A stretch of DNA of 47,496 nt from Gemmatimonadota bacterium (GCA_039588295.1 JBDHAB010000036.1:1-47496); one strand, 5' to 3'. Shown: positions 18,413 through 45,760, counted from the first letter of the stretch. Numbers and translations: made by a program. The notes: generated from the sequence alone by a model not told the origin.

Positions 18413-18796
18413 TCATTCGGGGAGCTTGTTGACGAGGCGCCGAACGCCTCTGGTAAGTTGTTTGACGTTGAAGTTGATGAGCAGGCCGACGCGACACCCG
18501 GAGAGCTTCAAATAAGAGAGTAGTTGGGCCTCATGAATAGGCTCGATACGGCTCACCGCCTTGAGCTCGACAATCACCTCGCGTTCCACCAGCAGGTCGA
18601 TGCGATAACCGCAATCGATGCGGACCCCTTTGTAGCTCACTGGCAGTGCCTTCTGCCGTTCGGCTCGAAGGTTTCGCTCAGCCAACCCGTGTGCCAGGCA
18701 CGCCTCATATGCGGACTCCAGCAGACCAGGCCCCAGCGCACGGTGGACTTGGACCGCGGCCCCGATGATCTGCTCCGTGATCTTGTTCACGTTCAT
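18413..18796 (-). CDS. GxxExxY protein (PD-(D/E)XK nuclease-like family), 127 aa
   Basis: [39 protein letters not shown] and GLLINF motifs; start ATG 18796. Confidence 0.93.
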
Positions 18797-18805
18797 CTCG
18801 GCGTC

Positions 18806-18825
18806 CTCCGCGATCTCTGCGGTGA
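18806..18825 (-). repeat. GxxExxY-flanking repeat, copy d
   Basis: CTCCGCGATCTCTGCGGTGA, the inverse of copies a/c. Confidence 0.88.
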
Positions 18826-18894
18826 GTACCGCACCGCTCCTCCGGGGGAGTGTACTAGCGATGGATGCAATCCGGGACATGGAAATCACCACCG

Positions 18895-20918
18895 CTACCT
18901 TGCCGGCCGAATCCGAATTGCTTGCCCTCCCCCGGGAGCCAACGAGAGGGTGAGGCGCGACCCCGCGTCGACGGTGCGCTGGGAGATCTCGATCGATAGC
19001 GGGTTGTGCAGCCAGTGTGCCCCAGGCCCGTCCGCATAGATTTCGGCTACATAGCTCTGGCCGGGGACGAGGAACGAGAGCGGGATCTCCAACGTGCGTG
19101 CTTCCTCGTCCGTGATTGCTCCCACGAACCATTCGTCCCCATCACGCTCCTGGCGCGCGACCACCACGTAGTCGCCGATCTTCCCGTCGAGCACGCGCGT
19201 GTTCTCCCAGTCGACCGCAACGTCCTGAATGAACTGGAGCGCGGGCTGCTTCTCGTAGTTCTCGGGCAGGTCGGCCGCCATGTGGAGGGGCGAGTAGAGC
19301 ACCACGTAGAGCGCAAGCTGTTTCGCGAGCGTCGTGCGGAGCCGCGGTTGCTCGGGCCGACGAGGGCTGCCGTCTGCGCTCTCGATCAGGATGTCGAACA
19401 CCCCCGGTGTGAAGTCCATGGGCCCGGCCAGCATGCGCGTGAAGAAGAGGATGGTCTCGTGCTCCGGAGGGTTGCCACCGTCGCCCGCCCATGCGTTGAA
19501 CTCCTGCCCGCGCGCCCCTTCGCGCGTCATCATGTTCGGGTACGTGCGATCGGTTCGTGCACATCGAGCATAATTCCGTGCCGCGCGGCCGACTCAATCA
19601 CTTTCCTCCAGTGGCGCACCATGTACTGTCCGTGGTGAGCGTGGCCGTGGGACGTCTCATCTCCCACATATCCCGTCTTCACCGCTTCGATCCCAAGTTC
19701 CTCGAAGAGCCCGAATCCGTCTTCGAGCTGGCGCTCATAGTTCTCGATGCCCATCGAAGTCTCGTTGTGCCCGACCAGCCCCACGTTACGCTCTTTCGCG
19801 TAGGCAGCGAGCGTGGGCAGGTCGTAGTCGGGATACGGTTCGGTGAACGAGAACGCGTCCGCGTTGTCCATCCAGTTACCGTCCCACCCCACGTTCCATC
19901 CCTCAACCAGCACCCCCCCAAACCCATTCGCGGCCGCGAAATCGATGTACCGTTTCGTGTTTTTGGTGGTCGCTCCGTGTTTGGGCCCCGAGCTCCAGGT
20001 CATCGTGCCGATATGCATTCCCCACCAGATGCCGATGTACTTCATCGGTTTGATCCAGCTGGCATCGTCGAGCACGTTCGGCGGATTCAGATTCAAGCCG
20101 AGGACCGACGGCGCGAGACCCGCCGCGTTGTCGGCCATTTGGATCGTGCGCCACGGGGTAACGAACGGCGTGCGGCCCCGGACCAACATTCCGTCGGCCC
20201 ACGGCGCGAGGTACGCACGTAGTGTTCGGTTTTGCTCACGGCCGCCGACCAGTGTCAGTCCGGCGTAGTCCACCAAGTGAGCCTCGTGGATGACGAGGTG
20301 CAACCCGTCGCGGAATTCCATCGTGAGCGGGGTGTGTACCGTATCTAGCGTGCTCACCGGTGATGAACGGAACAAGTACTCGTACCGGTTTGGCTGGAAC
20401 GCAGGAATCCACCATGCCCTTGCATCGTCGGCAATCGCAAACTCGGTCAGTTCGGCAGTGATTTCGAACTCTCCAAGGTTGGGCTGCTCCGGCAGCTCGT
20501 ACCGGAAGCCGACGCCGTCGTTGAATACACGGAACACCACCACGAATTGCCGGCCGGGAGGCGCAGCTTCGGCCACGACGAGTCTCAGCTCGTGATGGTG
20601 ATCCCGCACACGTGCGACCTCACCCCACACCTGTGTCCATGTCTGATCGACCATCTGCCTGGTGGTATCTACCACGCGGAGGCCGTCGCGCAACGGCGGC
20701 GCTCCACGGAACTCAAAACCGAGCCCCGACGGCAAGAGCACCGCTCGGCCATCACGTTGAAGGCTGTAATAGAACTTGCCCTCACGGATCTCGACGGTGA
20801 CTTCGTTCCGACCGTCGGGCGAGGCAACGCGGGCCTGGTCTTGCGCAGAGGCGGTCGCCGCCATCAGCGTCGCGCAGGTGACGAGTGCGAAGCGACGAAC
20901 CGTGCAGCGCATCCTCAT
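18895..20918 (-). pseudogene. GH97 alpha-glucosidase (SusB-like), split by a frameshifting deletion near 19550
   Basis: N-part (19530..20930): KYIGIWWGMH, EGWNVGW, HNETS, KTGYV, LDVHEPI. C-part in another frame: RTYPNMMTREGARGQEFNAW, FTRMLAGPMDFTPG, AADLPENY. The usual ~6-residue linker between HEPI and RTYPN is missing. Confidence 0.85.
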
Positions 20919-20999
20919 TGGTCTCTCCATTCACATTCGTGAGGTCAGGAGCCCGTGCCGGGTCCGAGCGGCGGCCCGGGGACTGGCGTATCTTACATT

Positions 21000-24975: not shown

Positions 24976-26556
24976 TCAGTACCCGGGGTTTTGCGTGAGC
25001 ATCGGGTTGGCGTCTAGCTGCGGCTGCGGAATCGGAAACAGGACAAGATGGGGCTGCCCCGCCGGCTTGTGCGTCCACGCCAGGGTGAACTTGCCGTGCC
25101 GGATCAGATCCTGTCGCCGCTTGGCTTCGGTGGTGAGCTCGAACAGGCGTTCCTGTAGGATCACGTCACGGTCGACGGCCGCAAGCGGCTCGTCCGGCTC
25201 GAAGACCCGCTCGCGCAGCGTATTCAGCAGCTGCAGGGCTTCCCCGCTCCCCGGCGACAGCTCGTTCAACGCCTCGGCCTTGATCAGATAGATCCCGCCG
25301 AGGCGGTAGTAGGCGAAGTCGTTGCCGCTCTCGTGGGCAACGCGGTTCGGATCCGGAGGCCACTTCATGATGCGGGTGCCCTCAGCTTCCGTAGCCGAGG
25401 CCGGATCAACGATGTCCACCGTGAAGTCCAATCGATTGCCTTGCCGGTCGTCGACCGGATCGCCGGTGACCAGATCGACCTGCGGTCCTGCGAGGAAGAT
25501 CTCCCGACGCTGGTCGTCCGCATCGAAAGCGGTGTACGTCTCTGCCAAAGCCGCCCAGCCGTTCCAGGGGGTGAGTCCGCTGATCGAATTGTAGTGCAGC
25601 ATCCGCATTATGTAGTTGAATCCCAAGTTCGTCTGGTTCATGAACTTGACGGGAAAGATGATCTCCGGCGATGCGAAGTTGTCGGCCTCGAAGGTCGAGC
25701 GCCAGTCGGTGGCCAAGCTGTACTGACCGGAGTTCAGGATGCGGTCCGCAGCTTCGATGGCCGCATCACAGGCGGTCTGGCTCCCCACCTGCACGCTCGT
25801 GCACGAGTTGTACGAGGTCACACTGGGCGCGTCCGTCGTGAACACTGCGGCGTTCAGATATGCACTGGCCAAAATGGCGTCGGCAGCCCCCTTCGTCATG
25901 CGTCCGTGGTCGGCCACCGGCCAGTTGTCCGGCAGGTCCGCCCGGGCCGCATTCAGCTCGTCGGTGACGAACTGGAACACCTCGGCGCGCGTGTTTCTCG
26001 CTCGCTCCCCGAGCTCGGTGTCCTCGACGATCGGCACACCACCGAAAAAGTCCATCAGCATGTAGTAGTAGAAGGCCCGGAGCGTCCGGAGCTCGGCTAC
26101 GATGACCGCCTTATCCGCCACGGTCACGTCCTCGATCGCTGCGAGCAGCAGGTTGGCCCGGGCGATGCCCCTGAAGGAATCGTTCCAGGCACTCTGGATG
26201 TTAGTGAGCCCGCCCGCGCTGATTGCCGTCCAGGTGTGGCGCTGATACTCGAGCCACTTTCCACCGTCGTCCCAGTCGCTGCCGCGCGTGGGCACGATCT
26301 CCTCGTCCGAGCTGACTTGGCTCACCATGAAGTAACCATCGCCGGTCGTATTGCGCAGCACCGCGTACACGGACGCCAGACTACCGAGGATTTCCGCCTC
26401 AGTCAGGAAGAAGTTGTCCGGTGTGATGACGCTGGTCGGTGATTCCTCCAGGTCTGTACAGCCTTGCAGCAATACGAATGTGAGGGCTGCGGAGAGGAGC
26501 AGTCGCGTGAAGCGCCTCGCCCCTCTGACCGAGTATTGGAAACGTGGTGTCATCAT
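24976..26556 (-). CDS. susD: RagB/SusD family glycan-binding outer-membrane lipoprotein
   Basis: Lipobox LQG-C-TDL; AELRTLRAFYYYMLMDFFGGVPIV, GRMTKGAA, ERLFELTTEAKRRQDLIRHG and QNPGY; directly follows susC. Confidence 0.95.
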   Translation of the reverse strand: MMTPRFQYSVRGARRFTRLLLSAALTFVLLQGCTDLEESPTSVITPDNFFLTEAEILGSLASVYAVLRNTTGDGYFMVSQVSSDEEIVPTRGSDWDDGGKWLEYQRHTWTAISAGGLTNIQSAWNDSFRGIARANLLLAAIEDVTVADKAVIVAELRTLRAFYYYMLMDFFGGVPIVEDTELGERARNTRAEVFQFVTDELNAARADLPDNWPVADHGRMTKGAADAILASAYLNAAVFTTDAPSVTSYNSCTSVQVGSQTACDAAIEAADRILNSGQYSLATDWRSTFEADNFASPEIIFPVKFMNQTNLGFNYIMRMLHYNSISGLTPWNGWAALAETYTAFDADDQRREIFLAGPQVDLVTGDPVDDRQGNRLDFTVDIVDPASATEAEGTRIMKWPPDPNRVAHESGNDFAYYRLGGIYLIKAEALNELSPGSGEALQLLNTLRERVFEPDEPLAAVDRDVILQERLFELTTEAKRRQDLIRHGKFTLAWTHKPAGQPHLVLFPIPQPQLDANPMLTQNPGY

Positions 26557-26633
26557 GAGATCCCGACCGTTACAAGGTTGACACTTGCTCTCGTCGCCGT
26601 CTGGGGCATGCGCCCACCACAACCGGGCCCGCA

Positions 26634-29600
26634 TCAGAACGAGAACCGAACGCCGGCCGTGAACGTACGCGCACGCGGATAGCTGAGATAATCGATCCCG
26701 CGCGACGCTAGACCGAGACCATCCGCCTCACGGCCTGGCCCGGAACTCGAGTGGGCTTCCGGATCATAGCCGGAATAGCCCGTCAGCAGGAACAGGTTAT
26801 CGGCCGACACGAAGACCCGCGCGGTGTTGCCCGTTCCGGACAACCAGCCCGGCACCTCGAACGTGTATCCCACCGTGAGATTCTGCAGGCGCAGGAACGA
26901 ACCATCTTCAATCCAGCGGGATGAGAAGATGGCCGCCTGGCTGATCGCGTCCTCGTCGTCCAATGACGAGCGCAGGAAGTTCCTGTCCGAATTCACGTTG
27001 CTCCTCGCCCCATGGACGAGCGCGGTGTTATTAAACACATCCCGCCCCTGCTCCCAGCGAAGGATCGTGCTCGCGTCGAATGGGCCCCATGTCAGCATGC
27101 TGCGCAGGCCGAGGGTGAAGTCCGGGTTGGCGTCTCCGATCACGCGAGAGTCATCTGCGGCCAACGACGTCGTCTCCCCGACCCGGTTGCCATCCGCATC
27201 ATAGTCATTGAACACTTGCTCGCCCGCGTCGTTGATGCCTACGAACTCCGGTCCCCAGAACGTGCCCAGCGGGAAGCCGGGCAGGATGCGCTGGGAGACC
27301 TGGTCGGACTGCCCCTGACCGCTCACCCCCCCGTTCCTGAGGAACTCGAACTCGCCCAGTTCCACGACTTCGTTGTTCTCCGCCGCGAACGCGAGTCCGG
27401 CCTGCCAGGTCAGGTTCCGCTGGTTGATCAGCAACGCATCGAGGACGGCCTCCAGGCCCGTGTTGCGAACCTTGCCGACGTTTTCCAAACGCGTTGTTTG
27501 CACTGCCGGCTGTGGTACGGGAACCGTCAGCAGCAGGTCGGACGTGTTCTTGACATAGTACTCGAAACTGCCCGAGATCCTGTTGTCCCAGAGACCGTAG
27601 TCGAGCGCCACGTTGAACTGCGACGTTTCCTCCCACTTGAGGTCCGGGTTCGCAGCCCTCGTCGGCGCCACCCCGACCGTCTTCTGATCTCCAAAGGGGT
27701 AGCTATCGCCGTCACTGGGCGCCAGCAGGGGCAGGGACGCGTAGGGTGCGACGGCCTCATTACCCTGCAGGCCGTAGCCCACGCGAAAGCGCAGCTCGGA
27801 AAACGGCCCGCCCTGCATGAAGCCCTCTTGGCCGATCCGCCACGACGCCGACACGGCCGGGAACGTCGCCCACTTGTGGTCGGCTCCGAACCGGGACGAC
27901 CCGTCACGGCGCAGCACACCGGTCAGGAAGTAGCGGTCGTTGAAACCGTAGGTGACCCTGCCGAAGAACCCGATGAGCCGATTGTCCGTTCTGTTGGACC
28001 AGGGAGTTTCGGGGGACGCGCCGCCCTCCAAATTGTCGAAACTGAATGCGTCGGTGAGGAAATCGCGGGCTTCCGCCCGGAACTGATCTACGGCAAAGTC
28101 ATTGAACTCGTAACCGCTGATGGCTTCAAACTCGTGCCGCTCGCCGAAACGCTGGGAATAGGTGAGGAGGGTCTGCAGCGTCACGGTCGTCAGTTCCTTA
28201 CTCTGCTGTCGTGCAAGCCCGTTCCACGATGCCCCGACCGCACTGGCTCCGGGGTAGTATTCACGCCGCGTGCTCTCGCTGCGGTCCACCCCCGCGATCA
28301 ACTGGAACCTGAGGCTCGGAACGATCTCCCACTGGGTCCTGAGGTTACCGAGCACGCGGGTCGTGCCGGCGAAGTCGGCGATCTGCTCCGTCATCGCCAC
28401 GGGGTTGCGCACCGACTGTGAACCGGTTCCGAGTTCATAGAACACACTGTCCCCGGTCGCCGGATCGGCCAATTTGACCGGCTGCGTCGGGTTGAACTGG
28501 ACCATGTTCTGGAACACGCCCCCTTCGAAGCCCCCCGTATTCTCGAATGGTATATAGTCGTTGCTGACGTGTGACGCCGTCAAATTGAGACGCAACTGCA
28601 GCCGGTCGTCCCAGGCGTAGTGCGTGGCGTTGAGCCGCCCCTGCCAGCGCTCGAAGGCGCTGCTGTTCACCACCCCCTCCTGGTCCATGTAACTGAGGGA
28701 GGCACGATACTGCGTGGACTCTGTCCCGCCGGAGAAGGCCACGTTGTGGTTCTGCGTGATGGCGGTGCGGGTGACCGCCCGCTCCCAGTCCGTGTTCGCC
28801 GACCCGAGTTGGTCGAGGCGCGCCGGGTTCAGGTTGCCCTCCGCGACCTGTTGCTCAACGAACTGCCGGTACTCTGCTCCGCTAAGCAGATCCAGATACG
28901 ACGCCGGAGCCGCAACGGACACATAGCCGTCGTACTCGAAGGTCGTGCGGCCTCGTTCGGCCTGTTTCGTCTCGATCAGAATGACGCCGTTTGCGCCCCG
29001 GGTGCCGTAGATCGCAGCCGCCGCGGCATCTTTGAGCACGGTGATCGATTCGATGTCGGCTGGGTTGATGAGGTTCAGCGGGCTGCGGGGCAGCGCGGCG
29101 GCTTTAGTGGCGTTTACTCCACCAGATCCGTCACCGATGCCGATCCCGCTCGCTTCGGTCGCCCGGTTATCCATGACGACCCCGTCGATCACGTACAGCG
29201 GCGTGTTGCTGGCGCTGATCGAGGTGGAACCGCGGATCCGGATCTGCGAGCCGGCGCCGGGCTCACCGTTGTTCTGCGTGATGTGCACGCCGGCGATCCG
29301 GCCCTGGAGCAGCTCGTTGGCGTTCGTAATCACGCCAACGTTGGCATCATCTGCGTTGACGGATGCGACCGATCCGGTGATAGTGGCGCGGCGCTGGGTA
29401 CCGTAGCCGGTTACCACGATCTCGTCCATCACCACGGCCTGACGTGGCAGCGCGAACTCCACCGTAACCGCCTGTCCGGCACTGACCGTGACTTCCTGCG
29501 TCTGGGGCGCGTACCCGATGAGACGCGCCGTCACGAAGTGCGTTCCCACGGGAACGTTGGTCAGCGTGAACCTACCGTCGGGTCCCGTGGTCGTCCCGCG

Positions 29601-29759
29601 CCGCGTTCCTTCAATCGTGACGACGGAACCGGATACGGTCTCCAACGTCGTGCCGTCCGTGACCCGTCCCGTGATGGTGCCCGTCTGGAACTGCGCTGCG
29701 AGCGGGCCCGCCAACAAGAGGCTGCCGAGGAATGGGAGTATGACCTTACGAGCAATCAC
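26634..29759 (-). CDS. susC: SusC/RagA TonB-dependent outer-membrane transporter
   Basis: CarboxypepD-like N-domain, VVTGYG, plug LKDAAAAAIYGTRGANGVILIETK, NPDLKWEET, IEDGSFLRL and C-terminal F. Probable GTG 29759 (track ORF extends to 29852). Confidence 0.96.
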   Translation of the reverse strand: MIARKVILPFLGSLLLAGPLAAQFQTGTITGRVTDGTTLETVSGSVVTIEGTRRGTTTGPDGRFTLTNVPVGTHFVTARLIGYAPQTQEVTVSAGQAVTVEFALPRQAVVMDEIVVTGYGTQRRATITGSVASVNADDANVGVITNANELLQGRIAGVHITQNNGEPGAGSQIRIRGSTSISASNTPLYVIDGVVMDNRATEASGIGIGDGSGGVNATKAAALPRSPLNLINPADIESITVLKDAAAAAIYGTRGANGVILIETKQAERGRTTFEYDGYVSVAAPASYLDLLSGAEYRQFVEQQVAEGNLNPARLDQLGSANTDWERAVTRTAITQNHNVAFSGGTESTQYRASLSYMDQEGVVNSSAFERWQGRLNATHYAWDDRLQLRLNLTASHVSNDYIPFENTGGFEGGVFQNMVQFNPTQPVKLADPATGDSVFYELGTGSQSVRNPVAMTEQIADFAGTTRVLGNLRTQWEIVPSLRFQLIAGVDRSESTRREYYPGASAVGASWNGLARQQSKELTTVTLQTLLTYSQRFGERHEFEAISGYEFNDFAVDQFRAEARDFLTDAFSFDNLEGGASPETPWSNRTDNRLIGFFGRVTYGFNDRYFLTGVLRRDGSSRFGADHKWATFPAVSASWRIGQEGFMQGGPFSELRFRVGYGLQGNEAVAPYASLPLLAPSDGDSYPFGDQKTVGVAPTRAANPDLKWEETSQFNVALDYGLWDNRISGSFEYYVKNTSDLLLTVPVPQPAVQTTRLENVGKVRNTGLEAVLDALLINQRNLTWQAGLAFAAENNEVVELGEFEFLRNGGVSGQGQSDQVSQRILPGFPLGTFWGPEFVGINDAGEQVFNDYDADGNRVGETTSLAADDSRVIGDANPDFTLGLRSMLTWGPFDASTILRWEQGRDVFNNTALVHGARSNVNSDRNFLRSSLDDEDAISQAAIFSSRWIEDGSFLRLQNLTVGYTFEVPGWLSGTGNTARVFVSADNLFLLTGYSGYDPEAHSSSGPGREADGLGLASRGIDYLSYPRARTFTAGVRFSF

Positions 29760-29898
29760 GATACGCCCCCCAGAGCTGGGAAGTGAGATGTTGTCCTGGT
29801 TCACTGCGGAGCCGGCGCTGCGAGCGACCCGGCTTCGCGAAAACGCCAACAAATCTTGGGAGGAACGCCTACAAAGCGTAATAGCAATGTATCGGTTC

Positions 29899-30023: not shown

Positions 30024-30653
30024 CTACCCCTTTTGCTTTGCCATCCTCTTTCGAGGGGCCTTCTTCCTCGCCTTCTTCTGCGGCGGTTTCTTGCGGGGCG
30101 TCTTTGGGGCTCCTGGCTTACCGGCGGCGGGCTCGCCGCCGGATTGGGCTGGTTCGACCACTGCGTCCTCGATGCGGTGACGTCGCCGCAGCACCACCGG
30201 CACGGAGAACCCGTCCATCCCGTCGATCGCAAACTCCCCCTGGTATCCGAGGCCGGCGGCGAGCTTGCGGTCGATCGAGACCTCGGCCTGGACTACCTGT
30301 CGCTCCCCCGGCTTGAGGTCCAGCTTGGCCGGTTGAAAGGACACCTTCGCAGGCACGCTCGTGCCGTCCGGGTCTGTGAATGCTGATGCAACGAGCCGGC
30401 AGGACACCTTCCGCTCGAGATCGTTGGTGACCAGAAAGGCGCTGCGCACGGTGCTGCCTTCCTCGCCCTCCAGCACGAGGACACCAGCATCGGCGCCGGC
30501 ATCCGCGGTGGAACCGCTGTCTTGGGGCGTCAGGAAGATCTCGGACATTCCGCGGAGGTACTCCAGCGAGAGATCTAACCACCCCTGATAGAACTTGACG
30601 TTCGCCTCAACGGCCCGCCGGAAGATCTCGTTGACATCCAGCGTATCAGCCAT
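30024..30653 (-). CDS. Unknown protein: amphipathic N-helix + Ig-like beta domain + Lys/Pro/Ala-rich basic tail
   Basis: 209 aa; IFRRAVEANVKFYQGWLDLSLEYLRGMSEIF, a beta-rich middle, and tail KPGAPKTPRKKPPQKKARKKAPRKRMAK. Overlaps the upstream stop by 8 nt. Confidence 0.8.
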   Translation of the reverse strand: MADTLDVNEIFRRAVEANVKFYQGWLDLSLEYLRGMSEIFLTPQDSGSTADAGADAGVLVLEGEEGSTVRSAFLVTNDLERKVSCRLVASAFTDPDGTSVPAKVSFQPAKLDLKPGERQVVQAEVSIDRKLAAGLGYQGEFAIDGMDGFSVPVVLRRRHRIEDAVVEPAQSGGEPAAGKPGAPKTPRKKPPQKKARKKAPRKRMAKQKG

Positions 30654-31224
30654 CCTTCACCTTCACGTGGTCGACGTGCTTGCACGGCCGCGGGCAGTAG
30701 AAGTGATCGTACCAATGGTGGATGTGGTCGGGGCAGTCGTGCACGAATGCTTCGCAGCAGATCCGCGCGGCACATTCGCTGACGCTGACCTCGACGCGCA
30801 CGACGTGATCGTTACAACCGTGTACCAGGATCGGTCCCCTGATCGTCTGGCCGGGCTCGATGTCGTCCGGAATCTTCACGGTCACCACGATGGTCCGCTG
30901 TTCCTGCGGGTCGATGACAAGGGTCGTGGGTTCGAACGCCATCCAGCCGGCCATGCGTCCCATCGCCCGAGCCACGACGACGTGGCGCGACCAATCGCAG
31001 TTCGTCACGTGGATCCGAATCTTCCCGAAGCACCCCCGTGGGATGGCAAGACCGCAGGTCCCCGCCGGCTGAGGCTCCCAGCATGGCGGTGGAATTTCGC
31101 AGTGGTCCGGCGCCCGTCTCGTGAGAGCCCCAGCCAACGTGGCCGCCACCTGTGCCGGCGCCTCGAGGAGAACCGCGATGGCGTCTCCCAACGAGCCCGT
31201 CCGGGTGCTCTCGACGCGTCTCAT
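30646..31224 (-). CDS. Unknown Cys/His-rich protein with an Ig-like core
   Basis: ATGA coupling at 31221-31224 with an AAGGAG RBS; motifs CEIPPPCWEP and ICCEAFVHDCPDHIHHWYDHFYCPRPC. Confidence 0.8.
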   Translation of the reverse strand: MRRVESTRTGSLGDAIAVLLEAPAQVAATLAGALTRRAPDHCEIPPPCWEPQPAGTCGLAIPRGCFGKIRIHVTNCDWSRHVVVARAMGRMAGWMAFEPTTLVIDPQEQRTIVVTVKIPDDIEPGQTIRGPILVHGCNDHVVRVEVSVSECAARICCEAFVHDCPDHIHHWYDHFYCPRPCKHVDHVKVKDG

Positions 31225-31955
31225 GCCTTTCTCCTTCCGCGGCGCGCGGGTTCCTGTGCGCGTTTGGTGACCTCGACGTCGATAATGTGAGTGACGTTTC
31301 CGATCTGCCACGTGCCAGAATAGGAGTACCGGGCCTGCACGGTGACCGGAATCTCCAGAAGAGCGGCAAGCTCGCGCGACTGGCCCGGGTTGAGAACCCC
31401 GCCACCGCGGGCCACCGCCAGACGAGCCACCCCACCATGACCTTCGCGCAGTTCCTCAAAGAAGCGGTCGACCCGGCTCTCGTCCTCCGCGAGCTCGGCC
31501 CGCAATGCCCGACCCAACGCTCGATCCTGCCCGTCGACATCTTCCAGATCCAACTCGGCCGCGCGCGGTACCTCGTACGCCACGTTCCCCGCGTTGGCGA
31601 CCGTGACCCCGAACTCCGCCCGCCCCCCCGGTTCTGCTGAGAGGACCGTCCGCTTGGGATGGACGCGCAGCTGTACCACGGGTTCGACCTCGACCACGAT
31701 ATTTCGGTTCTTGCCGCCCACGGGCGCTTTGCCGCGGTAGGTGCCCGGCGGTGTCTCGCGGGGGAGCTGCAGTCGGATCTCACTGGCTTCGCGGCCGAAG
31801 GGTGCTATCCGGGCGCGTAGCAGGGCCGACTCGGCGGGGAGCTTCAGTGTCACGGGCACGACGGCACGGCTCGGAGTGCCGAAGTGCACCACGGCCGAGA
31901 GCCTGCGCGGCGGACCCCGAAGCGTGATGACCTCGCTTCCCTTGACGGATGTCAT
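31221..31955 (-). CDS. Unknown beta-rich (Ig-like) protein, 244 aa
   Basis: ATGA coupling at both ends; LPRETPPGTYRG, VTVANAGNV and LNPGQSREL are typical of Ig/CARDB-like strands. Confidence 0.78.
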   Translation of the reverse strand: MTSVKGSEVITLRGPPRRLSAVVHFGTPSRAVVPVTLKLPAESALLRARIAPFGREASEIRLQLPRETPPGTYRGKAPVGGKNRNIVVEVEPVVQLRVHPKRTVLSAEPGGRAEFGVTVANAGNVAYEVPRAAELDLEDVDGQDRALGRALRAELAEDESRVDRFFEELREGHGGVARLAVARGGGVLNPGQSRELAALLEIPVTVQARYSYSGTWQIGNVTHIIDVEVTKRAQEPARRGRRKA

Positions 31956-32371
31956 TTGGCGTCCTTCAGGTGGAGCACCGCGCCGATAGCTTCGCGCGGT
32001 TCATACACCAACCGCGACGGGCCGCACCGCTCGCACGGGTTCGGCTGATACGGTTCGGTGATGACCTGTGCCTCACCACAGAGGTGGAGGGCGGCGAGTT
32101 CCATGCCGAGAATGGACAGTCCCAGGCGGAAATTGGCCGGCACGTGTGCGCGCACCTGCGGGATCTCCTTGATCCGCAGGTTCAAGTCCGGCAGGCTGTC
32201 GATCGCGACGTTGTAACTGCTCGGGATGCCATTCAACGTCATCGGTCCCATGGGACCGATGGCCGTGATGCTGAAATCGGGAAGGTTGGTCACGTCCACG
32301 TCGACGGGGGGAAGGTCATTGACGTCGACGTCGACCTGGGGCATGCTGTTGACATTGACGGTGGTCGCCAT
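31952..32371 (-). CDS. Unknown 139-aa protein with 10-aa beta-type repeats and a C-terminal CxxC
   Basis: VNVNSMPQ/VDVDVNDLPP/VDVDVTNLPD repeats with a 30-nt DNA period at 32280-32369; LCGEAQVITEPYQPNPCERC; GGAG RBS. Confidence 0.8.
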   Translation of the reverse strand: MATTVNVNSMPQVDVDVNDLPPVDVDVTNLPDFSITAIGPMGPMTLNGIPSSYNVAIDSLPDLNLRIKEIPQVRAHVPANFRLGLSILGMELAALHLCGEAQVITEPYQPNPCERCGPSRLVYEPREAIGAVLHLKDAK

Positions 32372-32548
32372 GGTCCGCTCCGAGCCCTCTGTCCATCCCT
32401 GATTTATCCGCGCGGACTATGGGCGTCAAGCGCCCCTCGAACTCGCTGTGCCGAACTGCGACAGTCGCGCCCGTGACCGAAAGGGGTCTTGCGCGGGGCT
32501 GGACTTGCGCACACCGTTGCTGGAAGAACCGTCTCATGGGAGCGTGCC

Positions 32549-32902
32549 ATGTCCGCTCTTCGCTGGAACGCCGCAGTCGTCGACTCGCCAGATTCCGTTC
32601 CGTACACCGTCGTCGGCGATCTCCTGCTTGCCGTCCGCACCCCGCGGTCGCGGGACTTCGTCACGGTGGAGGTCGGTCCCGCGCCCGGGGGCCGGCAGCG
32701 ACTCTCCGCGTCGGGCGACGTGTTCAAATCACCGAAGCCGTATCCTTGTTTGACGGGTCAGTGGCAGGGTGAGGTTCACACAGGAGACACGGTGGATTTC
32801 CAGGTTGCGGGGGGATCCTATCATCTGACCCTGGCGCAGCTAGCAGAGAGCCCCGACGGCTTCCCGTGGGTCACGTGCCAGTTCTGTCTTGAGCGGGACT
32901 AA
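32549..32902 (+). CDS. Hypothetical protein, 117 aa
   Basis: GGGAG RBS before ATG 32549; ends WVTCQFCLERD and overlaps the GGR start. Confidence 0.6.
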   Translation: MSALRWNAAVVDSPDSVPYTVVGDLLLAVRTPRSRDFVTVEVGPAPGGRQRLSASGDVFKSPKPYPCLTGQWQGEVHTGDTVDFQVAGGSYHLTLAQLAESPDGFPWVTCQFCLERD

Positions 32903-34427
32903 ACCGCGTCCCGCGATTGGCGGGCGTCGCCGCGCGTACGACGTGGTCGTCGTCGGGGGCGGCCCCGCGGGCGCGGTCACGGGATGGGCGCTCGCGTCAC
33001 GCGGTGTGCGCGTCCTCGTGCTGGACCGGGCGCGGTTCCCGCGCGAGAAGGTCTGCGGCGATTTCGTCGAGCCCCGCGGCCTGCGTCTCTTCCGCAAAAT
33101 GGGGTGCCTGAGCGCCGTGGAGGCGACCGGGCCGCTGGCGATCACGCACGTCAACCTGTTTCTCAACGGGACCAGCGCGTATCGCGGTACCATTCCGTTC
33201 TACGCCTCCCACGCCGACCTCCCCCCGCACGGCTACATCATCCCGCGCGAAGAACTCGACCATCGCATCCTTGCCTCGGCCATCGAGGCCGGCGCTGAGC
33301 TGCGCGAGGGATGTCAGGTCACGGGTGTGGAGCGGAACGGAAAGGGTATGGCCGTCCGGGTGCGGGACGGAGGTTCGAACGGCGCGTTGCAGGCACCGAT
33401 CGTGATCGGCGCCGACGGCACACACTCCATCGTGGCGCGTTCGTTCGGTCTTCTCTCGGACGATCCCCGGTACATCGCGGTGTCCCAACGCGCGTACGTC
33501 GAGGGCGTCGAGATCTCACGCGGCGAGGCCGCCTTCCTCTTCGACCGTGAGCTGTTTCCGGGATATGGGTGGATGTTCCCCATGGCGCACGGCCGCGCCA
33601 ACGTAGGGGTGGGGATCTTGGCGGAAACGCGCGACCGATACCGGATCAGCGTGCGTAAGCTGCTCGATGCGTTTCTCCGAAAGCTCCGACGGGTACACCC
33701 GGGATGCCGCTCGATGCGTCTCGCCTCTAAGCCCATCGGGGGGATCGTGAAGACCTATGGCGGCAGCGGGCCGAACTACTTCGACGGGGGAATTCTCGTT
33801 GGAGACGCCGGCAGCTTCGTAGACCCGATGACCGGGGAAGGGATCACTCCCGCGGCCGAGTCGGCGCTCTTGGGGGCCACGGTCGTGGCTGACGCGTTGG
33901 AGCAGGGGCGAACGAGCGCCAAGTTTCTGTCGGCCTACGAGCGGGGCTTCCGCGCGTACTTCGACCCGGCCATGTGTTACGTGGACTTCTGTGCGTGCCT
34001 CATGCGCAATCGGCATCTTCGCGAGTTCTGGCTCAGTGTGGTTACTCGAGGGTGCGAGCTCGCGATGGGCGACAACTCGTTCGCCCGGCTCGGTGGTGCG
34101 CCCTTCGGTGGGATCGCGGTGCAACCGCTCGACATCGTCCTCCACATGTGGGCGAAGAGCGCGGGACAGCTCGCCGCCGACAGCGGCCGCATCATGACGG
34201 AATTACTCTCTGGAGGGACCCGTTCGTTGGTCGAGGCCGTTGGCGATGTGGGACGGTGGCAAACCGGATGGTGGTCGTCGGTGGTGGATGATCCAATCTG
34301 GCACTCGCGGTGGATGGCGGACGTGACGAGCAAGTGGTTGCGCCTGTATCGGACTACGCGGCTGCGGGATCCCCGGGTGCGAGGTCCGGTGCAACTCCGA
34401 TTGACGCCGTCCGCCAGGTCAGGCTGA
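32889..34427 (+). CDS. Geranylgeranyl-reductase/MenJ-family FAD oxidoreductase with a Trp-rich C-terminal extension
   Basis: GGGPAG, FPREKVCGD, IGADG, PGYGWMFP and LVGDAGSFVDPMTGEGI motifs. Confidence 0.88.
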   Translation: MSGTKPRPAIGGRRRAYDVVVVGGGPAGAVTGWALASRGVRVLVLDRARFPREKVCGDFVEPRGLRLFRKMGCLSAVEATGPLAITHVNLFLNGTSAYRGTIPFYASHADLPPHGYIIPREELDHRILASAIEAGAELREGCQVTGVERNGKGMAVRVRDGGSNGALQAPIVIGADGTHSIVARSFGLLSDDPRYIAVSQRAYVEGVEISRGEAAFLFDRELFPGYGWMFPMAHGRANVGVGILAETRDRYRISVRKLLDAFLRKLRRVHPGCRSMRLASKPIGGIVKTYGGSGPNYFDGGILVGDAGSFVDPMTGEGITPAAESALLGATVVADALEQGRTSAKFLSAYERGFRAYFDPAMCYVDFCACLMRNRHLREFWLSVVTRGCELAMGDNSFARLGGAPFGGIAVQPLDIVLHMWAKSAGQLAADSGRIMTELLSGGTRSLVEAVGDVGRWQTGWWSSVVDDPIWHSRWMADVTSKWLRLYRTTRLRDPRVRGPVQLRLTPSARSG

Positions 34428-35312
34428 GAGGCGCCGGGTATTCCGAACGAGCTTGAGAAGTGGGTCCGGGTTGGGGGCGACCGTGGTGGCCTCCGCTTCC
34501 GCCTCCATCGCGATCTTGTCGAGATACTGCTCCGCGGTCGGGAGCACCGCTTCCATCATCTCGAGGAATCGTTGCGTCCCTTCGGGAGTCGGGTTGCGAA
34601 AGTGCAACGCGGCTTCGGGGTTCTGAATTGCGAGGGCCGCCGGCAGGGTCAGGATGCCATCTCGAATGTCCTGCTCGCCCCCACCGCCGAGTGCCACGGC
34701 GCCCCTCACGTCACCGACGTCGTCGCACCCGTGGTATAGCATCCCCAGCAAGCGACCGAAGTGTCGTAGCTTCTCGTCGCCGGTTCCGAGGCAGGCACAC
34801 ACCTCGAACATGGTACCGGTGTCTTCTCCCGCGATGTGCCGCCAGTCCTCGACCCCAAGCGGGTGCCGCCGCAACCGCCATTGCAGCGCCTCTGCAGAAG
34901 CCAGCCGCTTGAACAACTCGCCGATCCGATGGATTGCAAACGGCTCTTCGGCGACCATTTGGTAGGCATCCGCCGCGATGTAGCCGGAGGCCATGAGCGC
35001 CGGGAGCAATCCGAAACGGCAGTGCAGGGTGAGCACGCCGCGACGAAAGCGGGAGCGGTCGAGAATGTCGTCGACGATGAGTGAGACGTTGTGCACCATC
35101 TCGACCGCCACCGCGGCCTTCATGACCTTGGCGTCGATCGGTGCGTCAGACATGGCCGTGTGGCAGGCGAACAACGCCACGGGCCGGAAGTACTTGGAAC
35201 GGCCGAGGAACTGCCACTCGAGTAGCGACTTGAGTTCGTGGTCGCTACGGTCGGTCCAACTACGCAGGAACTCCTTGAGCGCGTCGAGTTGCTGATCGAA
35301 TCCCTCGGCCAT
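34419..35312 (-). CDS. Polyprenyl synthetase (trans-IDS) fold enzyme, divergent
   Basis: SKYFRP, EMVHNVSLIVDDILDRSRFRRG (FARM), GCDDVGD (SARM) and DIRDGILTLP; probable ATG 35312. Confidence 0.85.
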   Translation of the reverse strand: MAEGFDQQLDALKEFLRSWTDRSDHELKSLLEWQFLGRSKYFRPVALFACHTAMSDAPIDAKVMKAAVAVEMVHNVSLIVDDILDRSRFRRGVLTLHCRFGLLPALMASGYIAADAYQMVAEEPFAIHRIGELFKRLASAEALQWRLRRHPLGVEDWRHIAGEDTGTMFEVCACLGTGDEKLRHFGRLLGMLYHGCDDVGDVRGAVALGGGGEQDIRDGILTLPAALAIQNPEAALHFRNPTPEGTQRFLEMMEAVLPTAEQYLDKIAMEAEAEATTVAPNPDPLLKLVRNTRRLSA

Positions 35313-35372
35313 GATGAGGCCGGCGGGCGCGGGCGACCGCGATGCAGGAGTGCCCACCGACCGTTCTCGGGA

Positions 35373-35819
35373 TCAGGCTTTGACGCGCCCGGCGCGCTTC
35401 CGGCGGGACTTGCTCTTCTTTCTTGCCGCTGCTCGCTTCGTCGTGCGGGATGTCTTCGTGTTCCGCTTGGCGGTGCTCCTCGTGCGGGCCGAACCTGCCG
35501 TGTCCGTCTTCTTCTTCTTCTTCTTGATCTCGTCCAGTTCTTCGATGAAGCGCGAAGCGGTATGGCGCGGCAGTTCGGTCATCGAGCGAATGCCGGCCCG
35601 TCCGGCATCGAAGACCTCCAGCAGGACCTCTTTCGGCTCGTGCTCTGCCGAATTGATCGTGCGCAGACTGTTCGAGGCCGACTTGACGAACTCGGAAGTC
35701 TGCTCGACCCACTCGCGCCAAAAGCCAATGCCCGCTTTGAACGCAGCGAGCTGGACTTCGATGGCGTCCGTGAGTAGCTGGCGCAGCTCTTCGTCGCGGT
35801 TGGCTTCGGTCGGTGCCAT
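35373..35819 (-). CDS. Unknown helical (phasin-like) protein with a histone-like basic tail
   Basis: ATG 35819; amphipathic LAAFKAGIGFWREWVEQTSEFVKS; tail KKKKKK...KRAAARKKSKSRRKRAGRVKA. Confidence 0.75.
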   Translation of the reverse strand: MAPTEANRDEELRQLLTDAIEVQLAAFKAGIGFWREWVEQTSEFVKSASNSLRTINSAEHEPKEVLLEVFDAGRAGIRSMTELPRHTASRFIEELDEIKKKKKKTDTAGSARTRSTAKRNTKTSRTTKRAAARKKSKSRRKRAGRVKA

Positions 35820-44097: not shown

Positions 44098-45216
44098 CTA
44101 CTCAGGGACGGCCAGATAGACTCGGGCCGCGCGGCCAGAGTAGTCGAGAACGACGAGGTCGTCTCGACCGTCTGCATTGAGATCGGCGACCGCAAGTCCC
44201 CAGGGATTTTCACCTCCAGCAACTTCGGACGTGCGAATCTCCTCCTCTGCACCGAGCAGGATAAGGACTCCCGAGGTGCTGAAGTTCTGAATTGCCGCAT
44301 CGGACCGCCCGTCGGCATTGAAGTCCCCAACCGCAATGCCCTTGGCACCCGATGGCATCTCCATCTCAAACCAGGTGTCACTGGAGAAGAACCCTTTGCC
44401 ATCGCCTCGGTGAACGCGTACGGTCCCGGGTTCGGTGGCCAAGATGAGATCCAGTGCTTCGTCTCCGTTCAGGTCTCCAATTGCCACCGCAAAGGGTCTA
44501 TCGGCGGAAATGGTCCTGGGCTCTCCGAAGTCAGTGTCGGATGTTCCGAGCACAACGGCGATTTCGCTACGATTGGGCGTAACGAGATCGGACCGGCCAT
44601 CACCGTTCAAGTCTCCCAGGGCCATTCCCCGATACGGATCGCCGCCCACTGCAATACGAGTCGCTGATTGGGCGAACGCGCCGGCGCCCAACCCGTGCAA
44701 GACTATGATGCTCTCGCCTACTCTGTCATCGACCAGGAGGTCGAGGTGACCATCCAAATCCAGGTCAGAAGCGAGAACCGCGTGGGGATGCGGACCAATG
44801 TCCACACTCAGCGGGGACTGGTCAGCGGGCTCGAGTCCGCCGCTCCCGTCGTTCAAGAGAAGGGTGAGATAGAGCGTTTCGTGATTGGCGACCGCAACGT
44901 CAAGATCCCCGTCTTGGTCCAAGTCTCCCAGTGCCAGGTCAACCGGGTTCTCGCCAGCCGGGGAATCGTCGACTATGGTGAACTCATCTGTCCCCTGACC
45001 CCGCAGAACCGTCACGGTGCCGCTCACCGTGTTTGCCACGACCAGGTCCTGGTGCCCATCTCCGTTCATATCACCTGCGGCGACCGCCGAGGGAGCCTCG
45101 CCAACGGTCAGACGAGCGGCGAGAACGAACAGGTCAGGGGCCTGCTCGGCGGAGACTTGGCAACCTGAGGCTGCAAGCACCAGAGCGCCAAGCAAGGTGT
45201 GACGTCGAGGAGTCAT
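44098..45216 (-). CDS. FG-GAP/VCBS repeat lipoprotein
   Basis: Seven DxNxDG-type repeats; lipobox ASG-C; ATG 45216. Confidence 0.85.
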   Translation of the reverse strand: MTPRRHTLLGALVLAASGCQVSAEQAPDLFVLAARLTVGEAPSAVAAGDMNGDGHQDLVVANTVSGTVTVLRGQGTDEFTIVDDSPAGENPVDLALGDLDQDGDLDVAVANHETLYLTLLLNDGSGGLEPADQSPLSVDIGPHPHAVLASDLDLDGHLDLLVDDRVGESIIVLHGLGAGAFAQSATRIAVGGDPYRGMALGDLNGDGRSDLVTPNRSEIAVVLGTSDTDFGEPRTISADRPFAVAIGDLNGDEALDLILATEPGTVRVHRGDGKGFFSSDTWFEMEMPSGAKGIAVGDFNADGRSDAAIQNFSTSGVLILLGAEEEIRTSEVAGGENPWGLAVADLNADGRDDLVVLDYSGRAARVYLAVPE

Positions 45217-45224
45217 GCGGTCCG

Positions 45225-45265
45225 TAGCAACGGGGCGCCTCCGCCGGTTCGTGCGTCTGTTAAGC
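45225..45265 (-). repeat. Truncated attC remnant
   Basis: R'' GCTTAAC lies 6 nt after the upstream stop; the rest is too short and the R' match is poor. Confidence 0.4.
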
Positions 45266-45271
45266 TGCAAC

Positions 45272-45760
45272 CTAGCCACCCCACTGCCACGCATCGCGAA
45301 ATACGACCGGCAACGAAGCCAGCAGTTCAACCTCCGCCGGCTCGAGTCGTACGAAGCCGCCAAACTCGTGCGTAATTGCCCCGAGCATCAACTCACCATA
45401 CCGATAGAACCGTGGATTCTCCAGCCACCCGTCCGTGGAGTACGTGGGCGCTTCGACGAGTCCATCCGGGAGATAGCGCTCCAAAACTGCGATCGACTCC
45501 GCCGAGAGCCGCCACAGCGGACACGTCCGAATCAAAGGCACGGTCTTCGAGAACTCCAGGTGCTCCCGCTCGCCATCCGGAAGGCGAAACGGTTCCAGTT
45601 CCTTCTCCAGTGCGTCGATGAATGGCGACGGCCCGACCTTGGGATCCACTCGCATCAGGTTGACCGAGAAATCGGTGGCGCCCTGTCCGTGGACCCATGG
45701 AACGAGTTCCCATGTCTCGCGTCCGAGATTGTCTGAGCCGAAAAAGAACTTCTCAATCAC
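45272..45760 (-). CDS. Cassette: hypothetical protein, 162 aa
   Basis: GTG start 10 nt after the attC core; stop followed by an R'' box. Confidence 0.7.
   Translation of the reverse strand: MIEKFFFGSDNLGRETWELVPWVHGQGATDFSVNLMRVDPKVGPSPFIDALEKELEPFRLPDGEREHLEFSKTVPLIRTCPLWRLSAESIAVLERYLPDGLVEAPTYSTDGWLENPRFYRYGELMLGAITHEFGGFVRLEPAEVELLASLPVVFRDAWQWGG

Follow-up and report, generated by a model that had tools for sequence, protein, structure and literature searches.

Among described systems, the polyhydroxyalkanoate (PHA) granule, or carbonosome (PhaP, PhaF, PhaM, PhaC), resembles in part the locus that we report here, a set of eight contiguous genes (A to H) at positions 30024-35819 of a 47,496-nt stretch of DNA from a Gemmatimonadota bacterium (GCA_039588295.1, JBDHAB010000036.1:1-47496; hereafter the window, with a GC content of 60-69%). 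In both cases the enzyme of an insoluble product is encoded beside small proteins that are helical and have lysine-rich tails, and the tails of PhaF and PhaM bind DNA. Carbonosomes, however, lack the core of three immunoglobulin (Ig)-fold proteins and one beta-strand protein that characterizes the present system, and their product is a polyester, whereas the products here would be isoprenoid or polyketide chains. A second comparison is offered by the Family 2 encapsulins with polyprenyl transferase or terpene cyclase cargo, in which a protein assembly is likewise genetically coupled to an enzyme with the isoprenyl diphosphate synthase (IDS) fold; the best of the 16 NCBIfam matches of our protein G is indeed the cargo model NF041169. 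This match nevertheless reaches only 81.4 bits where 450 are required, neither the cluster nor the bacterium's own genome (96% complete) yielded an HK97-fold or Linocin_M18 shell gene, and proteins A-D are far too small to be such shells and have another fold. The gas vesicle wall protein GvpA has in common with protein A its small size, strong conservation, long beta hairpin, alternating hydrophobic residues and poor monomer model; yet A matches nothing in Pfam at E<=0.1, which sets it outside the GvpA family, no other gvp genes are present, and its partners are lipid enzymes.

As the composition of the locus matches no named system, we regard it as new in kind. Full-text searching of the literature, judged at the level of search results, returned no description of such a cluster, and six of the eight proteins (A, B, C, D, E and H) have no family match in Pfam or NCBIfam. 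Together with the recurrence of the cluster across species, this supports an earlier proposal, made from the sequence of the window alone (hereafter the original prediction), that an undescribed and conserved system lies here. The same prediction had placed eight contiguous genes in this interval, and all eight open reading frames (ORFs) were recovered:

A, 31952-32371, minus strand: protein of 139 aa (alignments A1 and A4).
B, 31221-31955, minus strand: protein of 244 aa, probably Ig-like, no Pfam family.
C, 30646-31224 (ORF 30646-31311), minus strand: protein of 192 aa (alignment A2; model pLDDT 80).
D, 30024-30653, minus strand: protein of 209 aa (alignment A3).
E, 32549-32902 (ORF 32489-32902), plus strand: protein of 117 aa from its likely start.
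F, 32889-34427, plus strand: flavoprotein of 512 aa, geranylgeranyl reductase (GGR) family.
G, 34419-35357, minus strand: divergent trans-isoprenyl diphosphate synthase of 312 aa.
H, 35373-35819, minus strand: helical protein of 148 aa, its start backed by alignment A6.

The genes of the A-D operon share an ATGA at both the A/B and the B/C junctions and overlap by 8 nt at C/D, as had been predicted apart from a trimmed start of C: the 220 homologues of C measure 192-196 aa, which identifies the ATG at 31224 as its true start, and it is with this start that the B/C overlap holds. Genes E and F, which overlap by 14 nt, diverge from A; F converges on G with a 9-nt overlap, and H lies upstream of G on the same strand. 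The maximum Kyte-Doolittle hydropathy over 19-residue windows was 1.63 across all eight proteins, which is in keeping with an absence of membrane spans and signal peptides and agrees with the original prediction, in which none of the eight had an obvious signal peptide. The arrangement is not a product of chance, since dozens of species have this gene set.

To place this recurrence on a quantitative footing, we scanned one genome per species with a profile of A and retained the best 80 of the 106 relatives obtained. Within these 80 loci A, B, C and D (hereafter ABCD) are contiguous wherever the contig permits, and B always follows A. By their gene arrangement, A-D are thus shown to form an inseparable, translationally coupled four-protein module, predicted to be cytoplasmic. 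The loci fall into the following sets:

Type 1, 48 of 80 loci: orthologues of G and F at 81-2318 nt from ABCD; H in 47, the exception being cut by a contig end.
Type 2, 21 of 80 loci: a different IDS, a class I methyltransferase, a second helix-Ig-basic-tail protein and three further unassigned proteins.
Cut by a contig end, 8 of 80 loci: L007, L010, L016, L027, L028, L037, L041 and L065.
No IDS in the available DNA, 3 of 80 loci: L034 and L081 with full flanks, L058 with 2.2 kb upstream and 5.6 kb downstream.

Type 1 loci occur in five phyla (Gemmatimonadota, Acidobacteriota, Fidelibacterota, Actinomycetota and Chloroflexota) and in two gene orders. Gemmatimonadota have H-G and E-F upstream of A, with E-F diverging from A, and the Chloroflexota locus (L066) also has G, F and H upstream of A; in Acidobacteriota, Actinomycetota and Fidelibacterota, G-F follows D, and H is downstream as well. 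Co-occurrence of the operon with IDS and GGR genes in other genomes had been set beforehand as the test on which the original prediction would stand or fall, and the linkage of ABCD to an IDS, a GGR and a second protein with a helix and a basic tail was found. The coupling of ABCD to an IDS, a GGR and H is shown to be strict in this clade.

The IDS of type 2 loci is more canonical than G, with about 170 bits on PF00348. The three unassigned proteins that accompany it are a 332-aa tryptophan-rich protein (with a YHDHNWGRWFWGED motif and only a faint match to DUF2804), a 187-aa protein, and a weakly SCP2-like protein (c13), three of four members of which match the SCP2 model PF02036 at E 7e-4 to 0.12, the best at 20.3 bits against a cut-off of 21.3. 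Carriers of type 2 include cultured Roseobacter and Ruegeria as well as several other phyla (e.g., L039, 7477-12061, and L052, 2648-7327). A large conserved protein that ORF clustering had proposed for these loci (c12) was dropped, being an antisense frame of the type 2 enzyme genes. IspH adjoins six loci, and an H+-pyrophosphatase is encoded nearby in the delta-proteobacterial loci.

The association of ABCD with isoprenoid genes is strong in our own clade but does not extend to all of its relatives. In L034, ketosynthase and acyltransferase-dehydratase (AT-DH) genes lie next to D. Four other loci (L117, L118, L120 and L126) encode, diverging from ABCD, a ketosynthase, a 1134-1167-aa protein that joins AT, DH and phosphopantetheinyl transferase, a type I phosphodiesterase, and an ORF of 106-124 aa that gave no family hit but reads like an acyl carrier protein (ACP). 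Directly upstream of the module in L125 are a type I polyketide synthase (PKS; AT-DH-ER-KR) and a terminal reductase of the 'male sterility' type, and the locus also has a radical SAM protein and an ABC1 kinase. L081, L083, L139 and L143 each encode, near ABCD, a DUF362 protein (739-979 aa); its gene immediately precedes A in the first three of these loci and lies some 3.7 kb downstream of D in L143. L106 and L119 combine a methyltransferase with reductases of the short-chain dehydrogenase/reductase (SDR) or 3-beta-hydroxysteroid dehydrogenase type.

All of these loci other than L034 and L081 come from a metagenome scan centred on the divergent clade (alignment A10, whose first row is the A protein of L081). 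Of 80 metagenome loci, 32 were at least 5 kb long; 14 of these have an IDS (4 of type 1 and 10 of type 2), 2 lack an IDS but have c10, c13 and the methyltransferase, and 16 have no IDS in the available DNA. The neighbours of this last group were searched against Pfam as 76 ORFs from 12 of the 16 loci, which gave the contexts described above; a polyester synthase was not seen. As other loci pair ABCD with ketosynthase, AT-DH and ACP-type genes, with a type I PKS and reductase, or with DUF362 and SDR genes in the absence of an IDS, the module is not isoprenoid-specific, and we rejected a reading of it in those terms. The original prediction of an isoprenoid-linked system therefore holds for this clade but was too narrow, given that 21 of the 80 genomic loci have another IDS with a methyltransferase and others are IDS-free. 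ABCD, carried by ten or more phylum-level groups, is a partner of hydrophobic-chain enzymes in general; judged by gene content, the loci show it wired across bacteria to differing sets of soluble enzymes that would build long chains of this kind.

In the present locus those enzymes are F and G, which are comparable to the pairs of GGR or MenJ and polyprenyl synthase that produce saturated isoprenoid tails. F carries the Pfam domains PF01494 and PF22578 (GGR_cat) and scores above the NCBIfam cut-off for the GGR superfamily (TIGR02032, 210.8 versus 158.8 bits), and its closest solved structure is 3oz2, a digeranylgeranylglycerophospholipid reductase from Thermoplasma. It differs from the known pairs in failing every NCBIfam equivalog, including MenJ (NF045655, 141.5 bits against a cut-off of 700), BchP/ChlP and the archaeal DGGGPL reductase, and in bearing a tryptophan-rich C-terminal extension of about 110 residues that is conserved across orthologues; moreover, no prenyl acceptor enzyme is linked. 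G matches PF00348 at 101.9 bits (cut-off 27), and both DDxxD motifs (DDILD and DDV[GA]D) are intact in 43 of 43 orthologues, as is expected of a trans-isoprenyl diphosphate synthase. The solved relatives nearest to it are octaprenyl, nonaprenyl and solanesyl synthases, led by the octaprenyl diphosphate synthase of T. maritima at 69 bits. From these similarities G appears catalytically intact and closest to long-chain synthases, and F would saturate the chain that G makes. The bacterium's own genome contains three PF00348 hits (213, 170 and 102 bits), of which G is the weakest, and two GGR copies, the second one, elsewhere in the genome, also scoring above the cut-off; given the two better-scoring IDS and the second GGR, F and G are best regarded as extra, dedicated copies.

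The remaining proteins offer fewer points of comparison. Profiles of A, B, H and c13 matched PDB sequences only at chance level (best E 0.02), and a profile of c10 matched none. More than 220 homologues were found for both A and C, every named one annotated as 'hypothetical protein' and the closest ones from Gemmatimonadota. Protein A consists of short amphipathic beta strands separated by prolines, followed by a predicted hairpin (residues 74-104) and then by an invariant LCGEAQ.ITEPY.PNPCE.C motif (alignments A1 and A4). Its invariant residues are H76, C98, C113 and C116, together with E100, Q102 and E106. The original prediction had described A as a 10-aa beta-repeat protein with a CxxC, and while the CxxC is there (C113 and C116), the DNA repeat amounts to 1.9 copies with a 30-nt period (32279-32335), after which come weaker strand-plus-proline repeats; the number of repeats varies among species. 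The 180-degree hydrophobic moment of A exceeded that of shuffled sequences in 30 of 30 homologues (z 1.7-5.5), whereas for C, D, E, F, G, H and adenylate kinase the same measure lay between -2.8 and 0.6. A monomer model of A reached a predicted local distance difference test (pLDDT) score of 53, in which only the hairpin is confident, too poor for a fold search.

Protein C was modelled at pLDDT 80, with a helix at residues 10-35 that a variable linker joins to an Ig sandwich (47-152), after which comes a Cys/His-rich end of lower confidence (C.IPPPCW ... HHWYDHFYC...C). Residues C42, C48, C137, C177, C181, H169, H170 and H174 are invariant (alignment A2). Structure comparison places the sandwich, at the level of fold, among PapD-like and MSP Ig domains: it superposes on the MSP domain of VAP-A, on the chaperones CupB2, Caf1M and FaeE and on PapD-like domains of HYDIN, with VIA Z scores of 9.6-8.0 over 92-100 residues and Foldseek E values of 8e-6 to 7e-4, although Z values of this size are common among Ig folds. 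There is no sequence-family match, and identity to these structures is 6-18%; unlike PapD-like chaperones and MSP/VAP proteins, C has an N-terminal helix and a Cys/His-rich end, comes without an usher or pilin partner and is predicted to be cytoplasmic. A search for longer or fused forms of C gave two matches, neither of them informative. Of the Ig-like labels originally given to B, C and D, that of C is thus borne out by a model; B is probably Ig-like, as suggested by its language-model (Atlas) neighbours, which include fn3_5, NPCBM_assoc and HYDIN-type Ig clusters, and D would be Ig-like from its sequence pattern. The layout of D comprises an N-terminal amphipathic helix (muH 0.57), a variable linker, the putative Ig-like domain and a tail rich in Lys, Arg and Pro (alignment A3). 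Protein E was found by tblastn only in Gemmatimonadota-type loci (L002-L027) and has no Pfam match even at E<=1. A joint complex prediction for A, B, C and D scored 0.14 against a mark of 0.32, which weighs neither for nor against binding.

H belongs to a family of 193 representatives (E<=0.001) with conserved LAAxxAGxxFWxxWV and D..R.YLR..LP motifs, a low-complexity linker and a basic C-terminus (RKRAGRVKA in this protein; alignment A6). Its language-model neighbours include PHA-granule families (the Phasin_2, Phasin, PHB_acc and PHA_synth_III_E clusters) at 0.77-0.84, a further likeness to the carbonosome that falls below the 0.9 mark and serves as a lead only. The proposal that H or D belong to the phasin family did not survive comparison with Pfam, which marks another difference from the PHA granule: the Phasin, Phasin_2 and PHB_acc models matched 0 of 24 H members (E<=1) and 0 of 61 distant H relatives (E<=0.01), and the bacterium's own genome has no Phasin Pfam match. 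One D-like protein from a type 2 locus matched Phasin_2 at E 0.0029 and 18.2 bits, below the cut-off of 24.9. The N-terminal helix of D aligned weakly with the H profile (E 0.0018, probability 15%). A basic tail is nevertheless present in every system, with the subunit that bears it varying: D and H carry it here, an extra D-like protein does so in type 2, the B protein of L081 (10363-11364) ends in about ten GSKKG-type repeats, and the D protein of L083 (9737-10411) ends in AAKKK repeats.

The distribution of the block within the phylum is sparse. The A profile found 6 of 401 genomes across the phylum, including the bacterium's own, and C was found in 0 of 40 relatives from the same order. 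The eight-gene block is missing from eight genomes of the same genus, in which homology to the window ends at about 29.8 kb (29810, the start of SusC) and resumes at about 36.1 kb (36135); because these genomes have the left flank, with SusC, on one contig and the right flank on another, this marks a synteny break at 29.8 and 36.1 kb and not a clean insertion site. We also reconstructed a tree from concatenated A-D proteins with a quick method (69 rows), and its topology departs from the phyla: for example, one Acidobacteriota and one Fidelibacterota row join the Gemmatimonadota clade, and Actinomycetota rows cluster with Acidobacteriota type 1 rows. On this tree the distinction between type 1 and type 2 needs only two changes, indicating that the enzyme set and ABCD have largely been inherited together. 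The rarity of the block, its absence from the eight same-genus genomes and the non-phyletic tree all fit an accessory block that moves horizontally, and, as judged from gene content and distribution, an accessory, horizontally mobile eight-gene system is what the locus represents.

ABCD persists as the chemistry of its partners changes, and for this reason the module most likely handles the insolubility of the products and not a specific reaction. One explanation, which we favour tentatively and consider quite possible if short of probable, is that ABCD would receive a water-insoluble product in the cytoplasm and keep it as a protein-covered deposit or particle. The amphipathic beta-strand protein A and the Ig-fold proteins B-D would cover the hydrophobic phase, A as a sheet and B-D as an Ig layer; H and the amphipathic helices at the N-termini of C and D could act in a phasin-like manner at the surface; the basic tails may anchor the particle, or its enzymes, to DNA or another polyanion; and the conserved Cys/His sites of A and C would probably hold a structural metal. 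A more far-reaching version, about which we are somewhat more doubtful, is that A-D form the coat of a previously unseen organelle, a protein-bounded neutral-lipid body with interchangeable enzyme cassettes (isoprenoid here, polyketide or fatty elsewhere) that is tethered to the nucleoid by the basic tails, and that such a body is built from amphipathic beta-sheet and Ig-fold proteins instead of a phospholipid monolayer with phasins or perilipin-like proteins.

The proposal of a protein-covered deposit must be read cautiously, and several observations weigh against it. No inclusion, complex or lipid has been observed. Motifs as invariant across phyla as those in A and C would more often be expected at an active or cofactor site than in a loose coat. 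Neither H nor D is recognized by sequence as a member of the phasin families, the similarity between H and the helix of D is weak, and a generic Ig fold in B, C and D says nothing about function. The beta periodicity seen in A is raised in B as well (z 2.3), which is normal for beta sandwiches, and some neighbours of ABCD, such as DUF362 and DUF6603 proteins, have no obvious lipid role. If ABCD does package or escort hydrophobic products, it would represent a new principle for dealing with water-insoluble metabolites in the bacterial cytoplasm, and a portable one, in that the same four proteins would serve isoprenoid and polyketide-type enzyme sets. Such a principle would be relevant to the cell biology of bacterial organelles, to lipid biochemistry and to the engineering of intracellular terpenoid or oil storage. 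The saturated polyprenyl products predicted here would be made by Gemmatimonadota and Acidobacteriota, which dominate soils, and the presence of a sister version in cultured Roseobacter and Ruegeria strains opens the question to direct testing.

One may postulate an alternative scenario, to our minds rather unlikely, in which ABCD acts as a soluble carrier or chaperone that passes the chain to the membrane or to another enzyme, with no storage body involved, in the manner of SCP2, RhoGDI or the strand-complementing chaperones of the PapD type. The PapD/MSP-like fold of C would suit this role, as would the short strand repeats of A, which could dock on Ig domains, and the weakly SCP2-like protein of type 2 loci, albeit that its matches lie below the Pfam cut-off; in addition, the partner enzymes are all soluble and their products are of the kind found in membranes. 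Four stoichiometrically coupled proteins with basic tails nevertheless exceed the needs of known lipid carriers, no conserved membrane acceptor such as a UbiA-type transferase occurs in the clusters, and a binding pocket in ABCD is only hypothetical.

The invariant Cys/His motifs that count against a loose coat could instead indicate that ABCD is a new metal-dependent enzyme or redox complex, whose tailoring or coupling step would apply to prenyl and acyl chains alike, and the clusters do resemble biosynthetic gene clusters. We think this unlikely, as the partners work with prenyl diphosphates in some loci and with ACP-bound acyl chains in others, which makes a shared substrate hard to name, as Ig folds, amphipathic helices and basic tails are unusual for enzymes, and as searches of Pfam, NCBIfam and PDB sequences gave no similarity of the proteins to any enzyme family or solved structure.

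ComQ has an IDS fold, and a ComQ/ComX-like scenario may also be considered in which A or C is the prenyl acceptor, G prenylates a conserved Cys or Trp and F saturates the chain, giving a lipidated shell. The invariant Cys and Trp residues of A and C, and the divergence of G from the two other IDS of its genome (102 bits against 170 and 213), would be compatible with this. Both chain-elongation DDxxD motifs are retained in all G orthologues, however, no ComQ-type model is among the NCBIfam matches of G, and ABCD also occurs with PKS-type enzymes and no IDS, so that this scenario is very improbable; the same IDS-free contexts argue against the prenyl-modified protein shell that the original prediction had offered as a variant. 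That F and G merely make a saturated tail of a quinone or membrane lipid, as a MenJ-like housekeeping pair whose position beside ABCD is meaningless, is hardly credible despite the partial MenJ score of F and the likeness of G to long-chain synthases, given how far F falls short of the MenJ cut-off, the linkage kept through two gene orders and five phyla, the other IDS and GGR copies in the genome, and the absence of the whole block from the same-genus genomes.

The region between A and E contains conserved elements. A search for RNA-sequencing runs that cover the locus gave none. An alignment of 16 Gemmatimonadota-type A-E intergenic regions revealed the following feature:

Promoter-like element TTGACG-N16-ATAAAT, 32402-32429, minus strand: upstream of A.

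Within it, TTGACG occupies 32429-32424 and ATAAAT 32407-32402, separated by a 16-nt spacer; the TTGAC column is kept in at least 85% of the aligned regions and is followed by a TAnAT-like box. A promoter consensus scan did not list this site, which the alignment shows. Facing E is a GCGCAAG motif at 32494-32488, with a second copy at 32510-32504, and the GCGCAAG column is likewise kept in at least 85% of the 16 related loci. The conserved boxes suggest promoters for both divergent operons, and the GCGCAAG region may be a promoter or operator of E-F. A partly conserved stretch between E and A, CAACGGTG, spans window positions 32488-32520.

Some further loci have features of note with regard to mobility. 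A phage-type integrase is encoded about 400 nt downstream of D in L117 (10120-11124) and an rve-family integrase upstream of A in L106 (1910-3001), both of which hint at movement of the module. The contig of L010 is labelled Planctomycetia, and its module falls inside the Gemmatimonadota clade with 60% identity to that of the window over 669 columns, possibly through recent transfer or a mistake in binning.

The remainder of the window holds a polysaccharide-utilisation locus with no relation to the eight-gene block (8436-29852 and 44098-45363), in which a SusC/SusD pair (26634-29852 and 24976-26634) is found among five large FG-GAP/ASPIC (UnbV) repeat proteins, an alpha-amylase, an SSF transporter and a GH1 enzyme. 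Its GH97 gene is broken into two ORFs with a 4-nt overlap (region 18413-20930), the first of which (19530-20930) encodes GH97_N and positions 1-162 of the catalytic domain and the second (18895-19533) catalytic positions 173-274 and GH97_C, the result of either a frameshift or faulty assembly. A further ORF, with a PD-(D/E)XK nuclease domain (18413-19132), overlaps the 3' part of this split gene.

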